From IMG/VR virus record IMGVR_UViG_2531839448_000006: DNA of 41,535 bases; one strand, given 5' to 3'. Numbering within the stretch: position 1 is the first letter of the stretch; every line of letters starts with the position of its first letter. Below are positions 1,100 through 39,587 of this stretch, in pieces. Both the position numbers and the translations under genes were made by a program. The notes beneath the pieces are model-generated. The model was given only the letters and a program-made list of their open reading frames with translations, did not search any database and was not told the DNA's origin. The stretch is from a virus. Taxonomy: Duplodnaviria; Heunggongvirae; Uroviricota; Caudoviricetes.

Positions 1100-2438
1100 C
1101 ATAAGCGCTAACTTAAGGGTTGTGGTATTACGCCTGATATGATTTAACGTGCCGATGAATTACTCTCACGATAACTGGTCAGCAATTCTGGCCCATATTG
1201 GTAAGCCCGAAGAACTGGATACTTCGGCACGTAATGCCGGGGCTCTAACCCGCCGCCGCGAAATTCGTGATGCTGCAACTCTGCTACGTCTGGGGCTGGC
1301 TTACGGCCCCGGGGGGATGTCATTACGTGAAGTCACTGCATGGGCTCAGCTCCATGACGTTGCAACATTATCTGACGTGGCTCTCCTGAAGCGGCTGCGG
1401 AATGCCGCCGACTGGTTTGGCATACTTGCCGCACAAACACTTGCTGTACGCGCCGCAGTTACGGGTTGTACAAGCGGAAAGAGATTGCGTCTTGTCGATG
1501 GAACAGCAATCAGTGCGCCCGGGGGCGGCAGCGCTGAATGGCGACTACATATGGGATATGATCCTCATACCTGTCAGTTCACTGATTTTGAGCTAACCGA
1601 CAGCAGAGACGCTGAACGGCTGGACCGATTTGCGCAAACGGCAGACGAGATACGCATTGCTGACCGGGGATTCGGTTCGCGTCCCGAATGTATCCGCTCA
1701 CTTGCTTTTGGAGAAGCTGATTATATCGTCCGGGTTCACTGGCGAGGATTGCGCTGGTTAACTGCAGAAGGAATGCGCTTTGACATGATGGGTTTTCTGC
1801 GCGGGCTGGATTGCGGTAAGAACGGTGAAACCACTGTAATGATAGGCAATTCAGGTAATAAAAAAGCCGGAGCTCCCTTTCCGGCACGTCTCATTGCCGT
1901 ATCACTTCCTCCCGAAAAAGCATTAATCAGTAAAACCCGACTGCTCAGCGAGAATCGTCGAAAAGGACGAGTAGTTCAGGCGGAAACGCTGGAAGCAGCG
2001 GGCCATGTGCTATTGCTAACATCATTACCGGAAGATGAATATTCAGCAGAGCAAGTGGCTGATTGTTACCGTCTGCGATGGCAAATTGAACTGGCTTTTA
2101 AGCGGCTCAAAAGTTTGCTGCACCTGGATGCTTTGCGTGCAAAGGAACCTGAACTCGCGAAAGCGTGGATATTTGCTAATCTACTCGCCGCATTTTTAAT
2201 TGACGACATAATCCAGCCATCGCTGGATTTCCCCCCCAGAAGTGCCGGATCCGAAAAGAAGAACTAACTCGTTGTGGAGAATAACAAAAATGGTCATCTG
2301 GAGCTTACAGGTGGCCATTCGTGGGACAGTATCCCTGACAGCCTACAAAACGCAATTGAAGAACGCGAGGCATCGTCTTAACGAGGCACCGAGGCGTCGC
2401 ATTCTTCAGATGGTTCAACCCTTAAGTTAGCGCTTATG
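1100..2438 (+). mobile_element. IS186 (IS4 family) insertion sequence, intact
   Basis: Perfect 23-bp terminal inverted repeats CATAAGCGCTAACTTAAGGGTTG at 1100-1122 and 2416-2438 (reverse complement). Flanking 10-bp direct repeat GGATAAATCC at 1090-1099 and 2439-2448 (target-site duplication). Element length about 1.34 kb, single transposase ORF. Confidence 0.9.
1155..2267 (+). CDS. insL: IS186 transposase
   Basis: 372-aa ORF (track 1149..2267, GTG at 1149; ATG at 1155) recognised from memory as the IS186/IS4-family transposase (MNYSHDNWSAILAHIGKPEEL...). Confidence 0.9.
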   Translation: MNYSHDNWSAILAHIGKPEELDTSARNAGALTRRREIRDAATLLRLGLAYGPGGMSLREVTAWAQLHDVATLSDVALLKRLRNAADWFGILAAQTLAVRAAVTGCTSGKRLRLVDGTAISAPGGGSAEWRLHMGYDPHTCQFTDFELTDSRDAERLDRFAQTADEIRIADRGFGSRPECIRSLAFGEADYIVRVHWRGLRWLTAEGMRFDMMGFLRGLDCGKNGETTVMIGNSGNKKAGAPFPARLIAVSLPPEKALISKTRLLSENRRKGRVVQAETLEAAGHVLLLTSLPEDEYSAEQVADCYRLRWQIELAFKRLKSLLHLDALRAKEPELAKAWIFANLLAAFLIDDIIQPSLDFPPRSAGSEKKN

Positions 2439-20722: not shown

Positions 20723-22489
20723 ATGAACACCACACTGACACCCGCAGATCTCGATCCCCGTCGGCAGGCCATGCTGCTGTACTTTCAGGGATACCGCGTA
20801 GCCCGCATTGCTGAAATGCTGGGCGAGAAAGTTGCAACCGTTCACAGCTGGAAAAAACGCGACAAGTGGGGTGACTATGGGCCGCTGGATCAGATGCAGC
20901 TCACCACCGCCGCACGCTACTGCCAGCTCATTATGAAGGAGCACAAAGAAGGGAAAGATTTCAAAGAGATTGACCTGCTGGCGCGCCAGTCGGAGCGCCA
21001 CGCGCGGATCGGCAAGTTTAACAATGGCGGCAACGAATCCGACTTAAACCCTAACGTCGCCAACCGCAACAAAGGCCCGCGCCGTCAGCCGGAAAAGAAT
21101 GTTTTCACCGATGAGCAGATTGAGAAGCTGGAAGAAATCTTCCATTCCTCCATGTTCAACTACCAGCGCCACTGGTGGGAAGCCGGAAAAACCAACCGCA
21201 TCCGCAACCTGCTGAAGTCACGCCAGATCGGCGCGACCTTTTACTTTGCCCGTGAAGCCCTGATTGACGCTCTGCTTACCGGACGTAACCAGATTTTTCT
21301 TTCCGCCAGCAAGGCACAGGCTCACGTCTTTAAGCAGTACATCATAGACTTCGCCAAAGAAGTCGAGGTGGAGCTGAAAGGCGATCCGATGGTGCTTCCT
21401 AACGGAGCCACGCTTTACTTCCTCGGCACCAATGCCCGCACGGCCCAGAGTTACCACGGCAACCTGTATCTGGATGAATATTTCTGGATACCGAAATTCC
21501 AGGAGCTGCGCAAAGTGGCTTCTGGTATGGCTATTCACAAAAAATGGCGACAAACCTATTTTTCCACGCCATCCAGCCTGACACACAGTGCTTATCCGTT
21601 CTGGTCCGGTGCGCTGTTCAACCGTGGGCGCAATAAAGCCGATAAGGTGGACATCGACCTGTCCCACAGCAATCTGGCCCCCGGCCTGCTGTGCGCAGAC
21701 GGGCAATACCGCCAGATAGTCACCGTGGAAGATGCAGTGCGCGGCGGATGTAACCTTTTCGACCTCGATCAGTTGCGCATGGAGTACAGCCCGGACGAAT
21801 ACCAGAACCTGCTGATGTGCGAGTTTGTGGACGATCTCGCGTCCGTGTTCCCGCTCAGCGAGCTGCAGGCGTGCATGGTGGACAGTTGGGAAGTCTGGAC
21901 CGACTTTCATGCACTGGCCCTGCGCCCGTTTGGCTGGCGCGAAGTGTGGATCGGTTATGACCCGGCAAAAGGTACGCAAAACGGCGACAGCGCCGGGTGC
22001 GTGGTGGTGGCACCGCCAGCCGTGCCGGGCGGTAAGTTCCGCATTCTTGAGCGTCACCAGTGGCGCGGGATGGACTTCCGCGCCCAGGCTAACGCCATCA
22101 AAAAACTGACTGAACAGTACAACGTGACATACATCGGTATCGACTCAACCGGCGTCGGTCACGGGGTTTACGAGAACGTGAAAGCGTTTTTTCCTGCCGT
22201 CCGGGAGTTTGTCTACAACCCCAACGTTAAAAACGCCCTGGTACTCAAGGCCTACGACATTATTAGCCACCGCCGCCTGGAGTTTGACGCCGGGCACACC
22301 GACATAGCGCAGTCCTTTATGGCAATCCGTCGCGCCACCACTGCCAGCGGCAACCGCCCGACCTATGAGGCCAGCCGCAGCGAAGAAGCCAGCCACGCCG
22401 ATCTGGCCTGGGCAACAATGCACGCACTGTTTAACGAACCGCTGCAGGGCGAGTCCGCCAATACCAGCAATATTGTGGAGATTTTTTGA
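20723..22489 (+). CDS. P: Terminase large (ATPase) subunit P
   Basis: 588 aa (P2 gpP about 590 aa); conserved position and orientation. Confidence 0.9.
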   Translation: MNTTLTPADLDPRRQAMLLYFQGYRVARIAEMLGEKVATVHSWKKRDKWGDYGPLDQMQLTTAARYCQLIMKEHKEGKDFKEIDLLARQSERHARIGKFNNGGNESDLNPNVANRNKGPRRQPEKNVFTDEQIEKLEEIFHSSMFNYQRHWWEAGKTNRIRNLLKSRQIGATFYFAREALIDALLTGRNQIFLSASKAQAHVFKQYIIDFAKEVEVELKGDPMVLPNGATLYFLGTNARTAQSYHGNLYLDEYFWIPKFQELRKVASGMAIHKKWRQTYFSTPSSLTHSAYPFWSGALFNRGRNKADKVDIDLSHSNLAPGLLCADGQYRQIVTVEDAVRGGCNLFDLDQLRMEYSPDEYQNLLMCEFVDDLASVFPLSELQACMVDSWEVWTDFHALALRPFGWREVWIGYDPAKGTQNGDSAGCVVVAPPAVPGGKFRILERHQWRGMDFRAQANAIKKLTEQYNVTYIGIDSTGVGHGVYENVKAFFPAVREFVYNPNVKNALVLKAYDIISHRRLEFDAGHTDIAQSFMAIRRATTASGNRPTYEASRSEEASHADLAWATMHALFNEPLQGESANTSNIVEIF

Positions 22490-23514
22490 TGGGAAAGAGT
22501 AAGAAAAACCGCGCTGCGGCGACGAATCAGCTCAAGCATAAAAGCCAAACTTCAGCCGAAGCATTCAGCTTTGGCGATCCCGTTCCTGTTCTGGACCGCC
22601 GTGAACTGCTGGACTATGTGGAATGCGTACAGATGGACCGCTGGTATGAGCCGCCCGTCAGCTTTGACGGACTGGCACGAACCTTCCGCGCCGCCGTGCA
22701 TCACAGCTCACCAATTGCGGTGAAATGCAACATTCTGACCAGTACCTACATCCCTCACCCGCTGCTCAGCCAGCAGGCTTTTTCACGTTTTGTGCAGGAC
22801 TATCTGGTATTTGGTAACGCCTACCTGGAGAAACGCACGAACCGCTTCGGTGAAGTTATCGCCCTTGAGCCTGCTCTGGCAAAATACACCCGACGCGGGT
22901 TAGACCTGGATACCTACTGGTTTGTGCAATACGGTATGACAACCCAGCCGTATCAGTTCACGAAAGGCAGCATTTTTCATCTGATGGAACCGGACATCAA
23001 CCAGGAGATCTACGGCCTGCCAGGTTATCTTTCTGCCATTCCATCAGCCCTGCTCAACGAGTCCGCCACGCTGTTCCGCCGCAAGTATTACATTAACGGC
23101 AGTCATGCAGGCTTCATCATGTACATGACCGATGCCGCGCAGAACCAGGAGGATGTGAACAACCTCCGCAATGCGATGAAAAGCGCCAAAGGCCCTGGCA
23201 ACTTCCGCAACCTGTTTATGTACTCGCCTAACGGCAAAAAGGACGGGCTTCAGATCATCCCGTTGTCAGAAGTCGCGGCGAAGGATGAGTTTCTGAATAT
23301 CAAAAATGTCAGCCGCGATGACATGATGGCAGCGCATCGTGTGCCGCCGCAAATGATGGGGATTATGCCGAATAATGTTGGGGGGTTTGGGGATGTGGAG
23401 AAGGCAAGCCGTGTGTTTGTTCGTAACGAACTAATACCATTGCAAAAAAGATTGGATGAGTTAAATAATTGGTTAGACGATAAAATAATAACATTTAACA
23501 CATACAATTTTTAA
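22486..23514 (+). CDS. Q: Portal protein Q
   Basis: 342 aa (P2 gpQ about 344 aa); overlaps P stop by 4 nt. Confidence 0.9.
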   Translation: MMGKSKKNRAAATNQLKHKSQTSAEAFSFGDPVPVLDRRELLDYVECVQMDRWYEPPVSFDGLARTFRAAVHHSSPIAVKCNILTSTYIPHPLLSQQAFSRFVQDYLVFGNAYLEKRTNRFGEVIALEPALAKYTRRGLDLDTYWFVQYGMTTQPYQFTKGSIFHLMEPDINQEIYGLPGYLSAIPSALLNESATLFRRKYYINGSHAGFIMYMTDAAQNQEDVNNLRNAMKSAKGPGNFRNLFMYSPNGKKDGLQIIPLSEVAAKDEFLNIKNVSRDDMMAAHRVPPQMMGIMPNNVGGFGDVEKASRVFVRNELIPLQKRLDELNNWLDDKIITFNTYNF

Positions 23515-23544: not shown

Positions 23545-24066
23545 TCAGTTAATCAGTTTATTTAATGACTTAGACCACTTCTGTCCCAAATCATCAATAT
23601 CAAAATCACCATCTCGCTGCTGCCATTTAAAAACTAAGGCTATAAGTTCACTCTTGAGGATTCTTTTATAATAATCCTTAGATTTTAATTGCTCAAGTAT
23701 ATGTTCACCAACCTCAGCAAGCTTTCTATGATTTAATTCTGACAGATCTCGATGCAAATGGTTAACTGATTTATACAAAGTATTTCCTTCAGTACGAGAA
23801 ATATCAATACCTTTATCTTCAAACCATTGTGAATCAAGCCAAACCAAATCTATCGTAGCTGGCTCTGACATCGTGGTGGCAAGGGCAACAATAATTTTCT
23901 CTACCGATTCATCTTGAAAATCGATAGAGTCAGAAACCCAAACTGACAAGGTGTTATTAGAGGTCCTTGTGCAACCTGTTATCGCGTCTGCGGATATATT
24001 GTCAGGTGCTCTACCTTTATTACATTCCCATTTACTATGGGATATTTTACGCAATAAATATGTCAT
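23545..24066 (-). CDS. Hypothetical protein, third gene of AT-rich three-gene accessory operon
   Basis: 173-aa ORF; ATG overlaps upstream stop (TAATG) indicating translational coupling; no motif recognisable by eye; AT-rich versus prophage core. Confidence 0.6.
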   Translation of the reverse strand: MTYLLRKISHSKWECNKGRAPDNISADAITGCTRTSNNTLSVWVSDSIDFQDESVEKIIVALATTMSEPATIDLVWLDSQWFEDKGIDISRTEGNTLYKSVNHLHRDLSELNHRKLAEVGEHILEQLKSKDYYKRILKSELIALVFKWQQRDGDFDIDDLGQKWSKSLNKLIN

Positions 24067-24713
24067 TATAGACTTCTCAAATATCCTATAACTGCTTCTT
24101 TATATTCTTCCACCCAATCAGCATCAAATTTCCTCATTCTTTCAAGGACTGGAATAAATGATTTTTCCCCCCAAGACTCAACTGCACGGATCGCTGCCTC
24201 AAATATAAGTTCATTCTCAAGAGAACAAACTCCCATAATCATAGCGTCAGCTTTATTACCTAACCATTCATATTCAATAGTCGATGCAAAATTAATGAAG
24301 TTCTTTACATGTTGATCATTCATTCTGTACAATTGTACCCATGTCCTTTGAAAGGACTCTTGGAATAAATCCTGATTTTTATCATACAAGAACTCCATGT
24401 AAATCTGTGTCTTGCTTATCTCGCCTTCAATGTAATCTTCTGAACATGTTAACTCAATTAGTCTAGAGGTACATTTTGAAACCTGAATTTCAAAGTTCTG
24501 CTTAGTTGACGAACCTTGATTTATTGACTCAGTCTCTAATTGAAAGCCACCATTTGTTTTGCTATGTGACAGCTCATTTCTTTTAATATCAGCGTAAATG
24601 ATATTGTTACCATCATAATAATCAGAAAATGCACCTATTGAACTTACCCCATTTTTAAACTTAGGTAAGCCAAAAGGCTTTTCATCACTTATTATAAAAC
24701 TATTCTTTACCAT
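24066..24713 (-). CDS. Hypothetical protein, second gene of three-gene accessory operon
   Basis: 215-aa ORF starting 10 nt after the upstream stop with GGTGA just upstream of the ATG; no recognisable motif. Confidence 0.6.
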   Translation of the reverse strand: MVKNSFIISDEKPFGLPKFKNGVSSIGAFSDYYDGNNIIYADIKRNELSHSKTNGGFQLETESINQGSSTKQNFEIQVSKCTSRLIELTCSEDYIEGEISKTQIYMEFLYDKNQDLFQESFQRTWVQLYRMNDQHVKNFINFASTIEYEWLGNKADAMIMGVCSLENELIFEAAIRAVESWGEKSFIPVLERMRKFDADWVEEYKEAVIGYLRSL

Positions 24714-24722
24714 AGCATCACC

Positions 24723-25418
24723 TTACAGAGAAGTGTAGCGTTGTAAATTATCAATAGTTTTAAGATTGTCCTGACACAATAACTCTAGCACGCGGATATA
24801 TTCATCCCAACCAAACCGCATATATCCATTTTGAGGAAGAGTATTAGTATCAGTTTCAAATAATACGCAATCACTTGGCATACCATTATTCAAAAATGGA
24901 GCTGAAATTTCAGCGCGTCTAATTGTACTAATACTATTAATTTCTTCCTGATACTCTTCAATATTTTTCCTTACAGCTATACGATTGTCCCACTCAAATG
25001 GATTAACACCTTTATAGGTAAACAAAGCATTGTAAAGCGAAAAGTAAACAGATTCATCCCCTTGATAGATACGTGAATTCAGAACAGCTATCCTATTTCC
25101 TTTTTTCATCGGAAATACGTTTTGTAGTTCCCTAGATATAGATAGAACCATTTCTGAAAACGCTTGAGGTTCCCCCCCCAAACCATTAAAAATGATTCCA
25201 TGGCTAGGAAACTCGACTCTTACTGTTTGATTGGTATCTACCATGATAAGAATTTGCTTTTTCTCACCAGTGATGGCATTAATCTCCTGACCAAAAGTAG
25301 GTACAAATCCAAATTTTCCAATCTTATCAAGCATAGATCCAATAGTTAGTGTATTTGGAACTATATCATTATTATTTGTGAAAAAATTAATCTGATGCGT
25401 CTGTTCAATCAATTTCAT
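24723..25418 (-). CDS. Hypothetical protein, first gene of three-gene accessory operon
   Basis: 231-aa ORF with strong RBS (AAGGAG, 5-nt spacer) before ATG at 25416-25418; no recognisable motif. Confidence 0.6.
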   Translation of the reverse strand: MKLIEQTHQINFFTNNNDIVPNTLTIGSMLDKIGKFGFVPTFGQEINAITGEKKQILIMVDTNQTVRVEFPSHGIIFNGLGGEPQAFSEMVLSISRELQNVFPMKKGNRIAVLNSRIYQGDESVYFSLYNALFTYKGVNPFEWDNRIAVRKNIEEYQEEINSISTIRRAEISAPFLNNGMPSDCVLFETDTNTLPQNGYMRFGWDEYIRVLELLCQDNLKTIDNLQRYTSL

Positions 25419-25624: not shown

Positions 25625-25653
25625 TACGCAAAAGCCCGCCAGTTCTGGCGGGC
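25625..25653 (-). terminator. Rho-independent terminator downstream of the LexA-regulated operon
   Basis: GC-rich stem GCCCGCCAG / CTGGCGGGC (25634-25653) followed on the minus strand by TTTTGCG. Confidence 0.5.
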
Positions 25654-25788
25654 CTTAGCAAAAACGATCCTCAAACGATCATGCGATCTCATGCGGCATA
25701 GACATGCACTACAGAGCTAACGCCTCGCAAGGGCTCGTTGTTCAACCTTGCTGACGCCAGAAGCAAGTTCAGACGCCAGCAACGTTTC

Positions 25789-26022
25789 TTAATGCAGCCA
25801 GCTGTCGTCTTCCCACACCTTCTGCATAATTTTCATCACTTGTTTTCTTTCTTCGTCCAGTTGCAGTCCGGTTAGTTCCACACCGTTAGAGCTACCTTTG
25901 CGAATGCGAATTACCGTTTTGGGATACAGGGGGCGCAGATTGCGGTAAAGCTCGGATTCAAGGGCGTCCAGGGTAGACTGGCTAATCTTCTGCTCTTTAT
26001 CGATCATTATTTCAATGCGCAT
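25789..26022 (-). CDS. DinI-family protein
   Basis: 77 aa from ATG at 26020-26022 (SD GAGGTG upstream); MRIEIMIDKEQ...ELYRNL...VWEDDSWL resembles DinI (recalled). Confidence 0.7.
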   Translation of the reverse strand: MRIEIMIDKEQKISQSTLDALESELYRNLRPLYPKTVIRIRKGSSNGVELTGLQLDEERKQVMKIMQKVWEDDSWLH

Positions 26023-26032
26023 AAAAGTCACC

Positions 26033-26221
26033 TCAGCTGATGACATCCATTGAGCGGTTGTATTCGTGGGTTCTGATTTTTGCCATGAGTTCATCAGTCA
26101 ATTCAGAAACCCACTGCAGAGCCAGCCCCTTCTCTTCATCACTACACTCACTAGCCGCTACAAGCTTAAGAAAAAAATCAATGCGCTGGAGCTTCAAAGA
26201 CTCCAAAAAATAGTCCTGCAT
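26033..26221 (-). CDS. Small SOS-regulated protein (candidate Tum-like antirepressor)
   Basis: 62 aa from ATG at 26219-26221 preceded by GGAGGA; LexA box 45-60 bp upstream; first gene of a two-gene operon with the DinI-like gene. Function inferred from position by analogy with phage 186 tum. Confidence 0.45.
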   Translation of the reverse strand: MQDYFLESLKLQRIDFFLKLVAASECSDEEKGLALQWVSELTDELMAKIRTHEYNRSMDVIS

Positions 26222-26264
26222 CTTTCCTCCTATGACACCACACGCAATACTGTATGTATAACCA

Positions 26265-26280
26265 CTGTTTATATTTACAG
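26265..26280 (-). promoter_or_regulatory. LexA operator (SOS box)
   Basis: CTGTTTATATTTACAG matches CTGT-N8-ACAG with AT-rich spacer; overlapped by a second partial half-site upstream (TACTGTATGTATAACC). Confidence 0.7.
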
Positions 26281-26374
26281 TATATAATAATCTTACTGAT
26301 GTAAAACGTTTTTTTACATTCATCAGCCTGATATGCCTGGTATTATTAAGAGCACGAATTGTTAACCCGCGTAA

Positions 26375-28789
26375 TTAATACAGGTTCCGCCACTGATCAT
26401 CTTCCTGCAAACGCTGGCTCCGATAGAAGATACGCAGGCCTGCTCCTGACGGAATACTGCCTCCGCGAAGGAGTAAATCGACCTCTTTCTCGCTGCCATC
26501 AAATCCTCTGGACTTCAGCTCATACACGAGCTGCAGTCGCTGATGGTCTGTAATTCGCTGTTTGTAGTCTTTACGCCGTTTCGGTTTCACCAGGCATAAC
26601 CTTGCTGCCAGTTCCCGGCGCTCTTTTTTGCTCATACTGTGCAGGTAATCGTGCAACTCCTTGTCATCCATGCTGGTAATGTCCGTTCTGGGGTCCCCAT
26701 CAGCTGATTTATCTTTCTCCTGTTGGTTCAAATTTTCAGCAAGGGGACAGTTATTGCCACGAGTCCAAGGGGCGCAAGCGCCCTGGTCGGCTGCCGCCTC
26801 CTGAACGTCAACGGCTTTACGAACCATTTTCCACTTCACTGCATGAGTGCAGATCTTGCCCTCTGCAATGGGTGACCAGATGCCATAAATACGAATACCG
26901 TGATCGCCATAGGCGGTCGGCTCTTCGTTGATTTCATAAGCGGTTCTGATGAGGTGATATTTACGGGGAACCAGTACGCCGCCCTGCTTCATGATGTAGG
27001 TGGCAAAGCAACCAGCATCAGCTGCAGCCAGAATGGCATCAAGGCGCTGGTTATCCAGTACCGGCGCACCTGCTTTTTTGTCACCCTGTTGCCTTGCCGC
27101 CTGACCAGCCAGCAATCGCAGTTCACGGTAAGCCTGACGCCCCGGAATGCCAAAGAAGCGGAATTGCTGAACACGATGCAGAGACGCCCAGGCATTAACG
27201 TATTCAGCGTTATCACGCAGAGATTTACCCGTTTCCTTGCTGATCTCGCCAGCCAGACCACGCCCGTCAATGTTCTTACTGATATATTTCGCGATGTAGC
27301 TTGTCGGCGTTCCTTTGCGCGGGTTAATCAACTCAGACTTAAAGCGCGGCCCAGTGTTATTGCCCAGCTCCTCGCGGTCTTCACGGATGGCAAACTTACG
27401 CAGTAATGCAGTGATGGCGCGGCGGTCTTTTTTGCGCATAAAACACAACAGGTGCCAGTGAACTGTACCGTCATGATGCGGCTCAGCCACCCGCACGCCA
27501 TACCAGCGCAATCCGGCTTTGTGCATCGCCTTACGAAATGCAGCAAACATGCCGACCAGATAGTCGCTGCTTTGTCTTACCGTCGAGTTTGTCCAGGTCG
27601 GGTTGGGTCTGCCGTTATTGAGCGTGGAATGGAAACGCGACGGACAGGTGATAGTGTAGAAAACGGCGCAGTCACCGCGCATTTCCGCGATAAGCTCCAG
27701 ACCTTTAACACAGGCCATCATCTCATTGCGGCGATGCGCCGGGTTGCTGCTGCTGGCGTTTACCACATCTTCCATATCCAGCGTGTCGCCGTCTTCGTTC
27801 ACCAGTTCATGAGAACGGAAAAACTCCAGCGACTTACGGCGCTGCTCACGTTTATGCATCACGGCTTCATAGCTGACATAGGGGGATGCTTTTTTGCTGA
27901 CCAGGCAGACAGCACGCAACTGCTCTTCCCGCCATTCGCAACGCATCTTCCATAATTTCCGATACCACCAGTCGGCACACAACATACGCGCCAGCGAACC
28001 CGGAATGAGTTCATAGGGCACGGGTTTACGGCGGTTTCTTTTCCGACGGAGTTGCTCAAACGCAGGCGGAATAACATCCAGACGCAGGGTTTCCGCTGCC
28101 ACCTTTTCCCATGTTTTGCGGATTTCTTCTGGCTTAACGTCATCGGTGGCATACAAATCACCACAAGCGGCATCAAGGCACATGCTCATATGCGCAGCGA
28201 CAAGGGTGGACAGGCGCTTCACCTGATCCTGACTCATTTCAGGCAGGATAAGCAGGCCATCCAGCCCTTCATGGCTTGCCATAAAGCGAAAAGAAGTGGA
28301 TAGCTGACAGTCGCGGACATGCTCCAGTCGTTCCAGACATGGCTTAATCGTCTCACGCAAATAGCGGGAATAAGCCTTTGGCCTGCCCAGGCTGCTGAAA
28401 TATTCAATACGTTGCATCAGCGGCTTGCTGATATGGGAAGGCTGGGCGTTGACGTCAGCCAGAATGACCATGTCCGGATTAAAACGCTGCTGCTCATGCG
28501 CCAGCTTTGCCCGGCTAATGAGCTTATCCTGCTCCATTTCGCGCTGGACAGGATCACGGGATTCATTAAAGAAATAACGCTCCCAGACCTGATCACTCAG
28601 TGCCTCGCGGCGCAGTTGTTCCTGCTCGTTATCGGCAGCGTACAGAGTGATCAGGTTTGAAAGTGCAGAAACCGGCGCAACTTCCGCCGGGTCCAGATAA
28701 GGGTTAATGGCCTTTTTTGGGCTGTTCCATGAGAATGCTGCGGCGACCTCGTTAAAGCCGCTGCAGTTGTTCATATCAGCATGGCTCAT
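26375..28789 (-). CDS. A: Replication initiation endonuclease A (rolling-circle initiator)
   Basis: Large ORF at the P2 gene A position; track start is TTG at 28816, first ATG at 28787-28789 overlaps the dam stop codon (ATGA). Confidence 0.8.
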
Positions 28790-29643
28790 GCACGCACTCC
28801 GTACACGGCGGAACAATCCACGCCACGCGAAGGATCAAATCCTATCCAGCAGCGCGGCCCGGCAACAGCAATGATTTCTGTTGCAGATTTACTCTCACCA
28901 GCTGCCACGCCGATGCTGCGTTTTGCCTTGATGTAGTGGTGAGTAAAATTGCGATACAGCGAACGGATCAGGGATGTGTCACTGTTAGAAATAATGACCG
29001 GATATCCTTCTGATGACCAATGTTCAAGAACAGATGCCAGGTGATACTGGTCATCTTCAGTGAAACCATCAGTGTGATAGCCGGAAAACGTACCGTCATA
29101 AGGCGGATCGCAATACACCACATCCCCCGCGTGCAACATCGCCAGCGTTTCATCGAAGCTGGCGCAGATAAACGTTGCCCGCTGGGCTTTTACTGCAAAT
29201 GCACGAATTTCTTTTTCAGGAAAATACGGATTTTTATAATTACCGTAGGGAATGTTGAAATGCCCGCTCTTGTTATAGCGACATAAACCACGGTAACCGT
29301 GACGATTGAGATACAGGAAATATATCGCTTTCATAAAATCAGTAATTTCAGTTGAGTAATTAAACTCCTGCCTTATGTTGTAATAATCCATCTCCCTGTT
29401 TGCGTTCTCAAATAAAACTCTGGCGCGAGATATAAACGATTCACAATCAGCGGCAACCTTTTTATAGAGGTTGATTAAATCAGGATTAATATCCGCAACC
29501 AGATAGCTGGGATAATCCGTCTCCATCATCACAGCACAGGAACCCGCGAAAGGTTCAACCAGTCGCGGGCCAGCAGGAAGATGTTTTTTCAGTTCGGACA
29601 TTATGGCAGTTTTATTTCCCGCCCATTTCAGGATGGTGCTCAT
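28786..29643 (-). CDS. dam: DNA adenine methyltransferase (Dam-like, N6-adenine)
   Basis: Catalytic DPPY motif ([10 protein letters not shown]) and N-terminal KWAGNK...FAGS AdoMet-binding region; ATG at 29641-29643 with GGAGG RBS. Confidence 0.85.
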
Positions 29644-31555: not shown

Positions 31556-31714
31556 TTACGCGGCCTTTGTTTTTTCTTTCTTGACCATGTACTTAGCAAG
31601 TTGACCATGGTGAATTTTTTGGTAAACAGAGCCGCGGGAAATGCCCTCCCACTCTGCGAACTCTGCAGGTGTTGCCATCTCTTTTGGTACACGAATTGAA
31701 ATATCAGTACTCAT
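31556..31714 (-). CDS. Small HTH protein, Apl/Cox/excisionase-like (first gene of lytic operon)
   Basis: Manually translated 52-aa ORF (MSTDISIRVPKEMATPAEFAEWEGISRGSVYQKIHHGQLAKYMVKKEKTKAA), below the ORF-track length cutoff; divergent from the repressor gene across a 121-bp switch region. Confidence 0.5.
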   Translation of the reverse strand: MSTDISIRVPKEMATPAEFAEWEGISRGSVYQKIHHGQLAKYMVKKEKTKAA

Positions 31715-32470: not shown

Positions 32471-33487
32471 ATGACTGTCAGAAAACAGCCAAACGGCAAA
32501 TGGTTGTGTGAGTGCTATCCCAATGGACGCAATGGCAAGCGCGTGCGTAAGCAATTTGCTACGAAAGGAGAAGCCATTGCTTTTGAAAGCTTCACAATGG
32601 AAGAAGTGAATAAAAAACCGTGGCTAGGTGAAAAGGATGATCGGCGACGCCTATCAGAATTAATTGAGCTTTGGTATTCCCTGTATGGCCAGACACTCGC
32701 AGACCCCAAGCGCCTCATGGCGAAACTTAGAATTATCTGTAATGGTCTAGGCGACCCCATCGCCTCAGAACTGACAGCCGGTGACTTTACAAAATACCGC
32801 GAAGCACGGTTAAAAGGCGACGTTCGTAACGAAGACGGCACACTAATGTCGCCAGTAAAACCACGCACGGTGAATCTTGAGCAACGTAACCTATCATCGG
32901 TTTTCGGCACATTGAAAAAACTAGGCCACTGGTCAGCACCAAATCCTCTCGCCGGGCTGCCAACATTTAAAATCGCTGAGGGGGAACTGGCGTTCCTGAC
33001 CTCGGAAGAAATTAAACGTCTGCTAGATGCCTGCGCTGATTCTCAAAACCCCAGTCTGCTTTTGATTGCAAAAATATGCCTGGCCACCGGCGCACGCTGG
33101 AGTGAAGCCGAAAACCTGCAGGGCCATCAGTTATCTAAATACCGCATCACTTATACCAAGACGAAGGGCAAGAAAAACCGCACCGTGCCGATATCTCAAG
33201 ATCTGTATGACGAACTCCCCAAGAACAGAGGGAAGCTATTCACCCCGTGCAGAAAAGCCTTTGAACGGGCAGTAAAGCGAGCTGGCATCGAGCTGCCAGA
33301 GGGCCAATGCACTCACGTGCTACGTCATACATTCGCCAGTCATTTTATGATGAATGGCGGAAACATACTGGTCCTACGCGATATTCTGGGCCATGCCGAT
33401 ATAAAAATGACGATGATTTACGCCCACTTTTCGCCGGATCATCTTGAAGATGCAGTTACTAAAAACCCTTTATGCAACTTAAGATAG
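32471..33487 (+). CDS. int: Tyrosine integrase
   Basis: 338 aa; C-terminal catalytic region with R...HxxRH...Y pattern (VLRHTFASHF...MIYAHF); position after the repressor as in P2/186. Confidence 0.9.
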   Translation: MTVRKQPNGKWLCECYPNGRNGKRVRKQFATKGEAIAFESFTMEEVNKKPWLGEKDDRRRLSELIELWYSLYGQTLADPKRLMAKLRIICNGLGDPIASELTAGDFTKYREARLKGDVRNEDGTLMSPVKPRTVNLEQRNLSSVFGTLKKLGHWSAPNPLAGLPTFKIAEGELAFLTSEEIKRLLDACADSQNPSLLLIAKICLATGARWSEAENLQGHQLSKYRITYTKTKGKKNRTVPISQDLYDELPKNRGKLFTPCRKAFERAVKRAGIELPEGQCTHVLRHTFASHFMMNGGNILVLRDILGHADIKMTMIYAHFSPDHLEDAVTKNPLCNLR

Positions 33488-33865: not shown

Positions 33866-35608
33866 CTACTCAAGAAGATATTCTAACTCATCTTTTATCG
33901 GGATAACTTGCTCATAAAGTCGGTGATATGACTTCCCAATTGCGCCTCTGAATTGTATTAACTTTGGTGGCTTGTTACCTATATTAATAATATGGTCTTG
34001 AGCTATACCTGGGTAGGGATCAATAAATACAATTTCAGATATACCTAACTGATAAGCTTTTTTCGCACACAGCTCACAGGGACTGGCAGTTGTATATAAC
34101 CTCCCCCCCTGAACGCCAATGCCACCATATTTTGCAAGTTGTAAAAATGCGTTTTCCTCAGCATGTAATGCACGTGTATGAACTTGATTACCTTTTTTAT
34201 CTTTATCAAGATCATTATGTATATCTTTAAAACAATAAGATAAGTTCCTGCCTCTATAAATATCACCAGTTTTATCTATCGCCCTAAAATTTAATAGTTT
34301 CTCATTAGCTTTAATTCTGAAAGAACTATTATTTCTCTCATAATGACTGTACACTTTTTCATCAAAGTCGTTCATTAGGCCATCTAGCGATCTCATAGAG
34401 CAAGGAATCTGACCGTTGGCGACATCATTCCAACCCACTGATTTTATTGAATTTTCACCATCAGTTACTACAGCTCCCACCTGTCTAGATATACAACCAG
34501 AGTTTAATTTTACCGTATACGCAACTTGCATAACCCTTTCCATTGCAGTAGGTGTTATCAGACCAGGATGCTTCATCAGTGCGATGTACCACGCTAATTG
34601 TGCTTTTAAAATATTGTCATTATCAAATTCATTTTTTGGGTTAAAAATGTGTATATCTGATAGTTCAATGCATTTAGTTACATTTGGATTAGTGAGATGT
34701 TTGTAAGAGTTATCACCTTTACCTGACTCTACAGAATCTATTTCCTCTATCTGCTTTTCAGAAAACTTATGTAGTTTCCGCAAATAGTTTGTTCGATGTT
34801 CATCTGGGGCATTTATTGACATTAAATGAAATGCAGAATATCTATCCTTAAAAAATTTTGCTTCATATGGATTTCTAATAGCATCTATGACAATTAATGC
34901 GTTATCTCTTTTGCTTTTTCTTATTAATTTAATAACCCTATTAATAGTTTCCGGCAAATGAAAAACAGATTTAGGTATAAACTCTTTATCTTCAAAATCG
35001 ACTTCAATACGCCCACGGCGTCTAATTGACTTACCTGCTAACTGATAGACTGAAACATATAAATTTGAGTTTATCGCATTTAGTTCAGCTTTGAATTCCT
35101 TAGTAAATTTTCTAACTAACCTCAAAATTGATATAAATTTATTAATCGTTTTTTCATTAAGCTTCAATTCACTATTATGATCAAGCAAATTCTCAATTAC
35201 ATTTTTAAATCTTGTTAAAATGAGATTATCTGAAAATACACCAAAAGTTAATACATTATCTAAATGCTCTTTACTGATAGATTTATTAGATGATAGAATA
35301 AACTCAGAAGCTTCTTCAACTGTTAACATCAAAAGATACGCTGAGATTAGGTCACTCACCTTAATTGAGTAAAAATTTTCCCAGTGATTTTCTGCGAATT
35401 TTTTAACTATATTATAACGATGGACATCCAATCCCTTGTAAAAACCCTGTAATTTACTTACATCAGGGAAGACTGTTTTTTCGTTTTCAAGAATATTAGC
35501 TGTTGTTGTGCAACCAGAACCAGTTCGACCTGTCAAACCGACTAAAATAAACTGCCCATTTTCAAGGAAAAGCTCACTAACGAATTTTTTTCTTTCATCA
35601 CGTCCCAC
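33866..35608 (-). CDS. P-loop NTPase/kinase-like plus cytidine/dCMP-deaminase fusion protein (dCTP-deaminase-type defence candidate)
   Basis: 580 aa; N-terminal glycine-rich P-loop-like motif GLTGRTGSGCTT; C-terminal zinc-deaminase signature HAEENA ... PCELC about 30 residues apart; AT-rich gene. Confidence 0.65.
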   Translation of the reverse strand: MGRDERKKFVSELFLENGQFILVGLTGRTGSGCTTTANILENEKTVFPDVSKLQGFYKGLDVHRYNIVKKFAENHWENFYSIKVSDLISAYLLMLTVEEASEFILSSNKSISKEHLDNVLTFGVFSDNLILTRFKNVIENLLDHNSELKLNEKTINKFISILRLVRKFTKEFKAELNAINSNLYVSVYQLAGKSIRRRGRIEVDFEDKEFIPKSVFHLPETINRVIKLIRKSKRDNALIVIDAIRNPYEAKFFKDRYSAFHLMSINAPDEHRTNYLRKLHKFSEKQIEEIDSVESGKGDNSYKHLTNPNVTKCIELSDIHIFNPKNEFDNDNILKAQLAWYIALMKHPGLITPTAMERVMQVAYTVKLNSGCISRQVGAVVTDGENSIKSVGWNDVANGQIPCSMRSLDGLMNDFDEKVYSHYERNNSSFRIKANEKLLNFRAIDKTGDIYRGRNLSYCFKDIHNDLDKDKKGNQVHTRALHAEENAFLQLAKYGGIGVQGGRLYTTASPCELCAKKAYQLGISEIVFIDPYPGIAQDHIINIGNKPPKLIQFRGAIGKSYHRLYEQVIPIKDELEYLLE

Positions 35609-35993: not shown

Positions 35994-38900
35994 TCAGAAC
36001 GACCAGTTCACACCAGCTACCCCGTTCCACGGGGATTCCACACCGGCACCATGGCTATACCCCACCCCAAGATGCCCGCTTAACGTACTGCTGAATGAGG
36101 CTTTAATACCTGCCTGGTATATTCCACGTCTGCCCGACAAATCATTGACGAAATTACCGTCACTATTCACTTTCACCCGGTTATCATCGACAAATTCTTT
36201 GCGCACAGCCGCCTTCAGCCACGGCTCAACTTCCATACCGTTCCCCAGACGCATGTTGTAACTCAGCGTTGCACCCAGTTCACGATATAAACTGCGGGTA
36301 TCGACTGATTTCGATTCCATGCCATTGGATAAATGATATTCAGGGTTATCAGCGGTGAACCCCCGTTAACGATGCATACGGCGTCAGGTTCCAGTTACCA
36401 TCGGTAAATCGCATCCCGGTTTCAATGTGACCGCCCAGCCCGTAGCTGCGATAACTGCCGTTGGCGGCTCCACCGCTGCCAACCGTGGAGTCGCGAGCTT
36501 CGGTACCTGCTAATACCAATAAATTACCGCCATTTTCCAGCAACATATTGGTCGCTAAATTGCCGGAAATGGAAAAAGTGCCGTACTGGTGAGTACCGCT
36601 GATTTCAATACCGTTAGCCGTGCTCGTCTGGAGAGCGGCACCGCTGTTCTGGACGATATCTGTCGCTTTGCCATTATCGTTAACTGTCAGCGTACCGCCT
36701 TCATTGATCTTTGTTTTTATTGCCTCTCCGTTAGCTGAAACTGTTTGTATTCCGCCGTCGTTAATCGTTGTCTCATTCGCCACCCCCTCGACGATTTGTT
36801 CGCCGCCGGTGAGCGTCGTGCCTGTCGCAGTGGCTTTTGTTTTGACGATCTCCCGTCCGCCCGTATTGACCTGTGTTTTGTCAGAAGAGGTGTCTGACTC
36901 CACGGTTAACACGCCGCCATTTGCCAGCAGGATATTGTTCGCCGCACCCTGCTCGATGCTGAACGCGACGCCATCCGCGCGTGTTCCTGTGACCCGCGTC
37001 GCCCTGGTGGTTGCAACCAAAGCGCCCTGGCTACTCTGCTGTATCCCCGTTGCGCTGCCTTTCTCCCGCACATCGAGTGTGCCGCCGTCATTAAGCACCG
37101 AGTTTTCAGCCAGACCGCCCTCATTAACTACCTGTGAACACCCATTAATAATGGAACCTTCCGCTATCCCGTTTGCCATAATTTGTTGTAGGCCAGAGAC
37201 GATATCGGTATTGATCGCCTTACCATAATTCTGAACGGTTTGTGTGCCGCCATTGATGTGCGTTTTGTCAGTTGACCCACCATCAACAATTTGTTCACCA
37301 CTTTCAATATTTGCCTCAGTGGCTAAACCATATACCGTTTGCTTGCCACCTTTGATATTTGCTTTATCAGAAGTGGCACTGGCATATATTGTTTGGGTGC
37401 CAGCACTATTAAGTACAGTGCCAACATCTTTTCCATAAACATCCATTTTGCCGTTGGCATTAATAATCGTATCAACTGCCCGGGAACCAGTGACGACTGT
37501 TAATGAGCCAGCGTTTTCCAGCACTACATTTTTAGCTTCTGAATTCCTGATGTAGAAAGCATCACCATAACTGTTGGTTCCTTCGATAAGGGTTCCGGAA
37601 GTTGTGGAAGCAATTAATGCGCCGCCGGATTGTTGCTCAACATGCTTAGCCTCACCACCGTCCTGAACCTCCAGAACGCCACCATTATTAAGTCTGGTGG
37701 TATCTGTTTTAGCCTCCTTCTGGACAATCAGCTTACCGCCAGCATCAACGGTAGTATTTTTCGCCGAGGTTTTAGCCACTACCGTCAGTTCGCCGGTATT
37801 TTCCAGCACAACATAATTAGCCTCCCCTCCGGTAATAGTGAAGTGAGAGAGCTTGTTGTATCCTTCAATATCAGTCCCTGCGCCCGTGTTGGCAACTAAA
37901 GCACTGCCCGTCTCCTGGTTAACCCCATGTGCAATACCGCCGGTATAGACAATCAGCGAGCCTCCGGCGCTAATATTGCTGCCAATTGCCGTACCATCTT
38001 TCTCAACAACTTGCTGGCTCCCGGAGGATATAATTGTTGTGTCAGCTTTCCCACCGCTTTTGATATTTTGCGTTCCGCTGTTGATATTGGTGCCTGTGGC
38101 TATGCCATAATTATTAAGATTCTGTGTGCCACCATTAATTATGGTATTTGTCGCGTTTCCTGCAACATCCATAACCCCGCCATTATCTATTCGGGTCGCA
38201 TCAGCTTTAGCATTCGTTAAAACTGACATTGTTCCTTTATCTTTAATAATCGTCTTGTTTGCGGAATGAGATACTTCTAAATGGCCTCCATTTTCCAGCA
38301 ACACATTGTCTTCCACTTTATTGTGGATGGAGAATGCACCTTCACTATTCGTACCGCTCACCGTCGTACCGTTAGTGTTTGTTTTTAAAATTGCACCATC
38401 GTGCTGGGTAACATTTGTTGCCGTACCACCACTAACATCAAGCACGCCACCGGAATAAACTTCAATAACATCCGAGGTGCTGGTGTTATTAACAATTTGC
38501 GTGCCACCAGAATAGATCTGCGTAATTTTTGCCGTTGACTTACTATTCAGAGACTGAGTTCCGCCTTCAATCGTCGTGTCCAGCGCACGGCTCTCATATA
38601 CTCTTTGCTCACCGCCATTTTTAATGGTTGTTGTTTCTACTGTGCTCTGTTCAACATACTGTCGACCACCATTTATGGTTGTGTTCGTTGCCAGACTTCC
38701 TTGTACTACGTCCTGAGAGCCAGACTTATTTATCGTTGTACCATCAGCATGCCCTTGAACTTTTACTATCTGGCTACCACCATCAATGAGTATTCCATTC
38801 GCACTCCCTCCCTCTACGCGTGAAGCACCGCCCTTAATTGTCGTTCCATTGCTGATACCCCCTTTATAAACGTCCTGATTGCCACTCTCGATTGTCGTAC

Positions 38901-39249
38901 CTGTGGAAATACCCCCGTCATGAATTGACTGTCTGCCACCGTTAATGGTTGTATTATTAGCCTGCCCCACAAAATTGTTATGACTTCCTATATCTTGATA
39001 TCCACCAGATTCAATAAGACTTCCATTAGATACCCCGCCATGAACATTCTGCTGGCCATGGTTGATAATATGAGTGTTATTTGTTGTACCTCGTTCATCC
39101 ACTTTTTGGTTGCCATCTACAGTCTCATCGTTTACCACACCAATAACATCAGGAGTGAAGGCCGCCATACCGGGCGGGGCATATATCAAGGCAGATATCA
39201 ATAAGGAAAGTACTGAGCGGCGACAATAATGGGGACTGGTCCTGTTCAT
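35994..39249 (-). pseudogene. Autotransporter adhesin, disrupted (reading frame breaks at about 36,320-36,349; beta-domain shortened)
   Basis: Passenger ORF 36349..39378 (likely start MNRTSPHY at 39247-39249 with signal peptide) is rich in T/G/N/S repeats. A separate-frame 108-aa ORF 35994..36320 ends in the classic outer-membrane beta-barrel terminus ...GVNWSF. Combined translocator region is only about 150 aa. Confidence 0.6.
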
Positions 39250-39587
39250 AAATTTCATCCTCTGAAAAGTGAATACTGAGTAGCGTTTAAGCGACCTTAG
39301 CTCTGCTGCAACATCAGCCCACAGGCACCAGACCAGGGGATTCATCCTGAAGAGACAGCGCAAGTGTATTGTGTTCACCGCTCATCAAAGACATCATGAT
39401 GAAATGATGATATTCCACATAAGAAAGAAGCATTTTTTAAACGCAGTGCGCTGAAGTATGGTTGGATAAAAAAGTCAATCTATTCAGGGAATACGGGGGT
39501 ATTCTTTTCTTTCGACAATCAGGTCGTCGGCAAAATAAAATGATTTACATAATCGTTTCTGATGAATATCTTCTGCTCACATAAAAA

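Follow-up and report, generated by a model that had tools for sequence, protein, structure and literature searches.

A LexA-silenced tumA-dinI operon as the probable SOS-induction module of a Fels-2/186-like prophage of Escherichia coli

The locus described here raises the question of how a prophage is induced by DNA damage when its immunity repressor carries no recognizable self-cleavage domain. The window, that is the whole stretch of 41,535 nucleotides that was analysed, contains a P2/186-family (Peduoviridae) prophage of Escherichia coli, and the prophage finds a near base-for-base match in E. coli strain CV839-06. A sequence-only reading had proposed that an SOS box in front of a 62-aa ORF and a DinI-like gene, paired with a CI repressor that looks non-cleavable, forms a 186-type induction circuit. 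It is highly probable that the locus is indeed a Fels-2/186-like SOS-induction module, in which LexA silences a tumA-dinI operon and TumA inactivates a 186-type CI without cleaving it. The locus adds little to known biology: the circuit is the textbook alternative to repressor cleavage of the lambda type, and it has been described in 186, PSP3, and Fels-2. What goes beyond the first reading is a double operator, an invariant cassette associated with divergent CI repressors, and a one-base deletion in apl.

The arrangement of the window is given in Table 1. The SOS module closes the early region: it follows gene A and precedes the packaging genes, and the operon begins directly downstream of the replication gene on the minus strand. 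The start of gene A in RefSeq relatives is the position equal to 28789 rather than 28816. With either start (26375–28789/28816), the gene identified by the Pfam Phage_GPA match adjoins the upstream side of the operon, where the earlier reading had placed it. This site after gene A is common to the window, 186, PSP3, Fels-2, and DuoHS.

Outside the module, an ORF for a DDE transposase of an IS element (1149–2267, plus strand) lies at the left end of the window, close to where the tail-gene region ends. Just past the integrase lies a low-G+C gene of 580 aa (33866–35608, minus strand) with a PADLOC match to dCTPase (4e-145) and a cytidine/dCMP deaminase domain. The identical gene in RefSeq is called 'anti-phage dCTP deaminase', thus a known defence gene abuts the prophage end. 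An ORF for an AIDA-type autotransporter adhesin of 1009 aa (36349–39378, minus strand) is followed by a separate 108-aa ORF (35994–36320, minus strand) with only the autotransporter beta-domain end, and the autotransporter gene looks split or disrupted.

Table 1. Features of the SOS module and of its surroundings in the window. Positions are those of the whole stretch.
Feature	Position	Strand	Evidence or remark
Tail, lysis, capsid genes		minus	first in listed order
Terminase ATPase and portal genes	20723–23514	plus	
Three-gene low-G+C cargo	23545–25418	minus	
Intrinsic terminator-like hairpin	25625–25658	minus	RNA fold -28.8 kcal/mol, z = -3.36
DinI-family gene, 77 aa, tumB equivalent	25789–26022	minus	Pfam DinI 6.6e-23
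tumA, 62-aa antirepressor candidate	26033–26221	minus	homologue of 186 Tum N-terminal half
LexA box 2, CAGTGGTTATACATACAGTA	26248–26267	minus	5-nt overlap with box 1
LexA (SOS) box 1, TACTGTAAATATAAACAGTG	26263–26282	minus	17/20 matches to consensus TACTGTATATATATACAGTA
Predicted p95-like sigma-70 promoter	26277–26305	minus	read from sequence
Weak A+T-rich hairpin between gene A and SOS promoter	26295–26327	minus	RNA fold -9.5 kcal/mol, z = -2.05
Replication gene A, P2/186 gpA-type rolling-circle initiator	26375–28816	minus	Pfam Phage_GPA 3.6e-127
Dam methylase, small early genes, CII, Apl/Cox-like gene		minus	beyond gene A in listed order
CI immunity repressor, 186 type, 210 aa	31836–32468	plus	Pfam Phage_CI_repr 5.7e-30, Phage_CI_C 1.7e-30
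Integrase	32471–33487	plus	follows CI

The first gene of the operon has GGAGG four bases ahead of its ATG, and its stop codon, TGA, is separated by 10 nt from the ATG of the dinI-like gene. The program-made ORF list contains a 96-aa ORF (26323–26033) at this place, which begins upstream of the operator and is therefore an over-extension of the 62-aa gene. Metagenome gene calls often stretch the gene in the same way, to 84–106 aa, with a start upstream of the LexA operator. Database entries P0005, P0007, P0008, and others are such over-extended calls. In some records the gene bears the name 'levan regulatory protein'; RefSeq labels the 62-aa gene as hypothetical. The levan label is wrong, and for annotation purposes the gene could safely be named a TumA-type antirepressor.

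By pairwise BLASTP, the 62-aa protein could not be aligned with 186 Tum. The homology to Tum thus rests on profiles, and the relationship is distant. A family profile built from 27 diverse members was compared with full-length 186 Tum by hhalign, which aligned residues 3–45 on 3–45 with a probability of 94.9% and E 4.7e-8. Conversely, the N-terminal 70 residues of 186 Tum match PHROG 698, to which the 62-aa protein belongs, at 5.9e-6 and in register. Both the Tum N-half and the 62-aa protein match PHROG 8554 and PHROG 1993; the latter is the PSP3 TumA family, and the 62-aa protein matches it at 0.0022. A motif, C-x7-A-L-x-[LW]-[IV]-[AS]-E-[IL], is common to all. Homology to the N-terminal, antirepressor half of Tum is therefore found at the profile level.

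Searches of Pfam, NCBIfam, and PDB sequences returned nothing for the 62-aa protein. An exhaustive phmmer search of 1.84 billion representatives yielded no more than 66 relatives, all of them small and stand-alone, and zero fused proteins of Tum length, so that the link to the fused Tum is visible only with profiles. AlphaFold2 predicts TumA to be a two-helix hairpin (helices 2–23 and 28–61; pLDDT 85.8). A Foldseek search of this model against the PDB returned generic helical hairpins, none at E <= 0.001. Among close relatives, TumA is 98.4% identical to STM2728 of Fels-2 and shares 61 of 62 residues with the tum product of DuoHS.

The second gene encodes a clear member of the DinI family (PF06183): the match scores 81.3 bits against a gathering cut-off of 24.2, covers profile positions 1–63 of 63, and is accompanied by a PDB match to E. 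coli DinI (1GHH, 2.7e-6). Both the family assignment and the 10-nt gap to the 62-aa ORF are as the earlier reading had described them. The protein is 100% identical in the window, Fels-2, 813R9, and DuoHS, and it is 41% identical to residues 71–145 of 186 Tum (E 3e-24). When the two proteins are set against 186 Tum, the small one covers the N-half (by hhalign and PHROG, with BLASTP negative) and the DinI-like one the C-half. The two genes therefore correspond to the halves of Tum. According to the 186 record, the DinI-like C-terminal part of Tum, 77 aa, is also made separately from an internal GTG.

It could be asked whether the two halves are joined in the window as well, in which case the true inducer would be a Tum-like fusion of about 145 aa that arises by +1 ribosomal frameshifting from tumA into dinI, and the 62-aa product alone would be inactive. 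Ahead of the dinI start codon, 24 codons are free of stops in the dinI frame, which is +1 relative to tumA and overlaps its end, and the resulting protein would be close in length to the 146 aa of 186 Tum. However, chance alone would leave 24 codons open in roughly a third of cases, no slippery or otherwise shift-prone motif was recognised, and dinI has its own GAGGTGA ribosome-binding site and ATG. On these grounds the fused product was judged unlikely. In PSP3, moreover, the two genes are in the same frame with a stop between them and the upstream gene alone is reported as the antirepressor, and tumA occurs without dinI in ESSI-2-like and Yersinia phages. Taken together, the frameshift product is extremely improbable, and a stand-alone 62-aa TumA is the preferred inducer.

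The DNA ahead of tumA contains the expected control site. The core motif CTGT-N8-ACAG occurs once in the 41.5-kb window, at 26265–26280, but 0.54 occurrences of this minimal motif are expected by chance, so the core alone proves nothing. The consensus SOS box that the earlier reading had reported at this position is nevertheless present, since the full 20-mer fits the LexA consensus at 17 of 20 positions, a score that none of 100 shuffles equalled. Ten upstream regions were aligned, those of the window, 186, PSP3, Fels-2, 813R9, SopEPhi, Klebsiella phage ST512-KPC3phi13.6, ESSI2_ev015, Cronobacter phage ESSI-2, and Yersinia phage YenM_06.16-2. TACTGT-N8-ACAGT stands 25–50 nt ahead of the small-gene start codon in all ten, and the box is kept in all nine related loci even where the adjacent intergenic DNA has diverged.

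The operator is, however, not the one SOS box that the earlier reading had seen, but a colicin-like overlapping pair (26248–26282). Box 2 has a perfect right half (ACAGTA) and a degenerate left half (GTGG), the latter being a poor LexA half-site by itself. The pair has the CAGTGGTTAT...ACAGTA junction that characterizes colicin-type double operators. The 35 nt of the double box, TACTGTAAATATAAACAGTGGTTATACATACAGTA, are ~85% identical to operators of colicin-like bacteriocins on ~750 plasmids. In the underlying BLAST search, a 61-nt query against plasmids gave ~750 records with 80–90% identity over this stretch alone. Two of these plasmids were opened, and in both the operator lies directly upstream of colicin-like bacteriocin genes, for example TACTGTATATAAAACCAGTGGTTATATGTACAGTA. 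Over 42 nt, identity to the operators of colicin-like genes is about 85%. A full-text literature search for the colicin operator string returned no paper; the comparison was therefore made directly on the plasmid sequences.

Box 2 is present in the Fels-2-like group, namely the window, Fels-2, 813R9, DuoHS, SopEPhi, and ST512-KPC3phi13.6, and the DuoHS double operator is identical in sequence to that of the window. The upstream alignment shows no box 2 in 186, PSP3, ESSI-2, or the Yersinia phage. In colicin operons, two LexA dimers bind double boxes cooperatively, and such double operators result in very tight repression, with a small fraction of cells expressing the genes (PMC2994835). By analogy, two LexA dimers may occupy the double box of the window, and the Fels-2-like clade would then hold its antirepressor under tighter LexA control than 186 does.

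The predicted promoter consists of a -35 hexamer TTTACA (26305–26300), a spacer of 17 nt, and a -10 hexamer TACTGT (26282–26277) that lies within the LexA box. In the annotation of 186, p95 has TTCACA, 18 nt, and TACTGT, with the -10 as the left arm of the LexA site. A TT(T/C)ACA hexamer stands 17–18 nt ahead of TACTGT in eight of the ten loci, with diverged spacers and flanks. The exceptions are PSP3, which has TTCCCA at that spacing, and the Yersinia phage, in which there is no comparable hexamer. A generic promoter scan did not call the p95-like promoter because TACTGT fits only three of the six positions of TATAAT, and the assignment is based on the conserved layout. It appears that the SOS box lies in the promoter of the 62-aa ORF, as the earlier reading had it, with the operator covering the predicted -10 in the manner of 186 p95.

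Two hairpins flank the operon. The weak one on the gene A side holds the -35 hexamer in its 3' arm. It may insulate the operon as a terminator against read-through from gene A, though this role is uncertain; in the Gifsy prophages, terminator-like palindromes stand ahead of the LexA boxes (Lemire 2011). The one at the distal end has a G+C-rich stem of 11 bp followed by UUUUG, and it probably ends the SOS operon like t95a in 186.

Between this terminator and the portal gene, in the position of orf97 in 186, sits the cargo listed in Table 1. We take this position to be a variable cargo hotspot of P2-like phages. The cargo consists of three co-oriented genes for proteins of 231, 215, and 173 aa, with 33–36% G+C as compared with about 53% for the phage. 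The genes gave no match in Pfam, NCBIfam, or PADLOC, and they match only PHROGs of unknown function. DNA and protein searches of the phage collection returned no match, and among 5426 complete E. coli genomes only 4 have the cassette. The three genes make up a candidate defence or moron cassette, so far uncharacterised.

The repressor that such an operon would have to overcome is encoded on the plus strand, next to the integrase. CI has an N-terminal helix-turn-helix domain and the C-terminal oligomerisation domain of 186 CI. As the earlier reading had suspected, the 210-aa protein has no Pfam match to Peptidase_S24 at E <= 0.01; its C-terminal domain is Phage_CI_C, and the features of a lambda-type self-cleaving repressor (S24, Ser/Lys dyad) are not found. 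Its identity is 95% with the CI of Salmonella phage RE2010 and 30% with 186 CI, and among solved structures it matches 186 CI best (PDB 2FJR, 2.8e-26). The partner repressor of the operon is thus a 186-type CI without a self-cleavage domain, and it is the presumed target of TumA.

With the box, the gene spacing, the DinI assignment, and the CI facts all checked, every factual statement of the sequence-only reading holds. Its proposal that the small protein is a candidate antirepressor acting by 186 logic is supported, as each element was found: the homology to the Tum N-half, the DinI-like partner with its homology to the Tum C-half, the LexA operator, and the 186-type CI. The probable course of events in a lysogen is as follows. 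Host LexA would sit on the overlapping SOS boxes downstream of gene A, covering the -10 region and the start of the promoter, and would thereby silence the two-gene operon of tumA and the dinI-like gene. Upon DNA damage, RecA would be activated, LexA would cleave itself, and the operon would be transcribed. TumA, the predicted helical hairpin of 62 aa, would then bind the 186-type CI and block its binding to the operators, so that the lytic promoter would be freed with CI uncleaved. The DinI-like protein would act on RecA filaments and tune the strength or timing of the SOS signal without causing induction itself.

The evidence for individual steps comes from related phages. The record of 186 describes Tum as 'expression repressed by LexA; inhibits CI DNA binding' and its 77-aa form as modulating SOS induction. 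The Tum protein of 186 binds CI and prevents it from binding its operators (PMC3121763); direct binding of TumA to the CI of the window is presumed from this precedent. When tum is deleted from DuoHS, or when the strain carries lexA(Ind-), mitomycin C no longer causes lysis or the appearance of viral foci (PMC12055606). The gene deleted as 'tum' in that study, the Phollow study of DuoHS, is ECHS_RS04495, the 62-aa gene. By analogy with these experiments, induction of the window prophage would likewise depend on LexA and require tumA.

The roles of the two gene products could also be reversed, with the DinI-like protein driving induction, for example via RecA filaments, and the 62-aa ORF serving as an accessory or as an aid to dinI translation. 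DinI-family proteins bind RecA filaments. The match to 1GHH places the protein in this family, and dinI is fully conserved in the cassette. In addition, the start-to-stop deletion of tum in DuoHS could in principle lower translation of dinI 10 nt downstream. However, the CI of the window has no S24 domain for RecA to act on, and in 186 the 77-aa form only modulates, while it is full-length Tum that inhibits CI binding. When dinI was removed by non-polar deletion in Gifsy-1 and Gifsy-3, lytic reporter fusions did not differ significantly in how strongly or how fast they were induced (PMC3121763), a result that supports TumA as the inducer and DinI as the accessory. The presence of tumA homologues under a LexA box in several phages without any dinI gene (the ESSI-2-like and Yersinia phages) fits the same division of labour. 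A DinI-driven induction is therefore very unlikely, and TumA is kept as the inducer in what follows.

A separate matter is whether the module still serves a phage. The apl/cox-like gene (31556–31714, minus strand) shows a one-base deletion relative to E. coli CV839-06, with A6 in place of A7 at about 31570–31576, in an alignment of 320 nt that is otherwise identical. The deletion shortens the Apl/Cox-like protein from 80 to 52 aa. The missing base may be a sequencing error in the homopolymer; if the frameshift is instead real, it could impair excision and the lytic switch. As apl is apparently frameshifted, induction here may not give excised phage.

One could go further and regard the module as a relic in a defective prophage, in which the operon serves the host only, for example as an extra copy of DinI in the SOS regulon. 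Besides the truncation of apl, an excisionase and lytic-switch gene, by one base in a poly-A run, the IS transposase near the tail-gene end of the window speaks for this possibility. On the other hand, tumA, dinI, and the operator are intact and 98–100% identical to those of inducible phages, one missing homopolymer base is a common sequencing error, and all other phage genes examined are full-length ORFs. A mere relic is thus hardly to be expected, and an SOS-induction module that works for the prophage remains the preferred interpretation.

The conservation of the cassette does not extend to the repressor. Across the window, Fels-2, 813R9, and DuoHS, TumA is 98–100% and DinI 100% identical, whereas the CI of the window is only 59.5% identical to that of Fels-2, 44.4% to that of 813R9, and 38.3% to that of DuoHS. 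In these comparisons the N-terminal DNA-binding domain is 59–69% identical as against 31–58% for the C-terminal domain. In Klebsiella phages whose TumA is 100% identical, CI is 41–59% identical to that of the window. Two explanations present themselves: free recombination of the SOS cassette among heteroimmune phages, or recognition by TumA of a conserved surface of CI, which would then probably lie on the N-terminal domain. We tentatively put forward, as a possibility that falls somewhat short of being likely, that tumA-dinI is an immunity-independent 'master key' for divergent CI proteins and may recognise their better-conserved N-terminal domain. If this is true, SOS induction of one prophage could spread by cross-induction to heteroimmune Fels-2-like prophages of the same cell, and the damage threshold for that decision would be set high by the colicin-type double LexA operator. 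Antirepressors of the Gifsy prophages act in trans across prophages (PMC3121763), and cross-induction in the Fels-2-like group would be only a modest extension of known biology. The double operator, and the single antirepressor found with divergent CI repressors, are accordingly modest leads on induction thresholds and prophage cross-talk.

The system as a whole is already known from 186, PSP3, Fels-2, and DuoHS, and the window can be placed among these and two more distant relatives. Colicin operons have nearly the same 35-nt operator sequence and box spacing as the window. In colicin promoters, however, the boxes are downstream of a separate -10 hexamer, whereas in the window the -10 is apparently inside box 1, and the gene under the double box is a phage antirepressor. 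The Gifsy-1/2/3 operons (gfoA/gftA) resemble that of the window in that they combine a LexA-repressed DinI homologue and a small antirepressor directed against a non-cleavable repressor. They differ in having the reversed order, with dinI first, and in belonging to lambdoid phages with a different repressor family.

Phage 186 shares with the window a LexA-repressed promoter after gene A with the -10 inside the SOS box, a CI of the same type without self-cleavage, and a DinI-like part that is also made alone. In contrast to the two genes of the window, both halves are fused in one Tum of 146 aa in 186; 186 also has a single SOS box instead of a double one, and orf97 is next in its operon, whereas different cargo stands behind the terminator in the window. 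PSP3 has, like the window, a split Tum after gene A and a LexA box, with an upstream antirepressor and a downstream DinI homologue. Its annotation names tumA ('similar to 5' end 186 tum; UV induction of prophage') and tumB, and the assignment of the upstream gene as antirepressor and of the downstream gene as DinI homologue goes back to a personal communication cited second-hand (PMC3121763). PSP3 TumA is distant from TumA of the window (PHROG 1993 at 0.0022, weak hhalign match). Its tumA and tumB are in the same frame with a stop codon between them, unlike the different frames and 10-nt gap of the window, and its SOS box is single.

Fels-2 of Salmonella (Felsduovirus; STM2728 / STM2726.1) is said to be regulated by an antirepressor like 186, and tum is split in two in Fels-2 as in PSP3 (PMC3121763). 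It has the same split operon as the window, with TumA 98.4% and DinI 100% identical and a nearly identical operator, but its CI is 60% identical and the cargo between dinI and the portal gene differs. DuoHS of E. coli HS (ECHS_RS04495 / ECHS_RS04500) differs in the cargo downstream of dinI and in CI, which is 38% identical overall and 59% in the N-terminal domain. Its TumA (61/62), its DinI-like protein (100%), its double operator, and its place after gene A are those of the window. On this near-identical copy, the hypothesis of the first reading has in effect already been tested, with a positive outcome.
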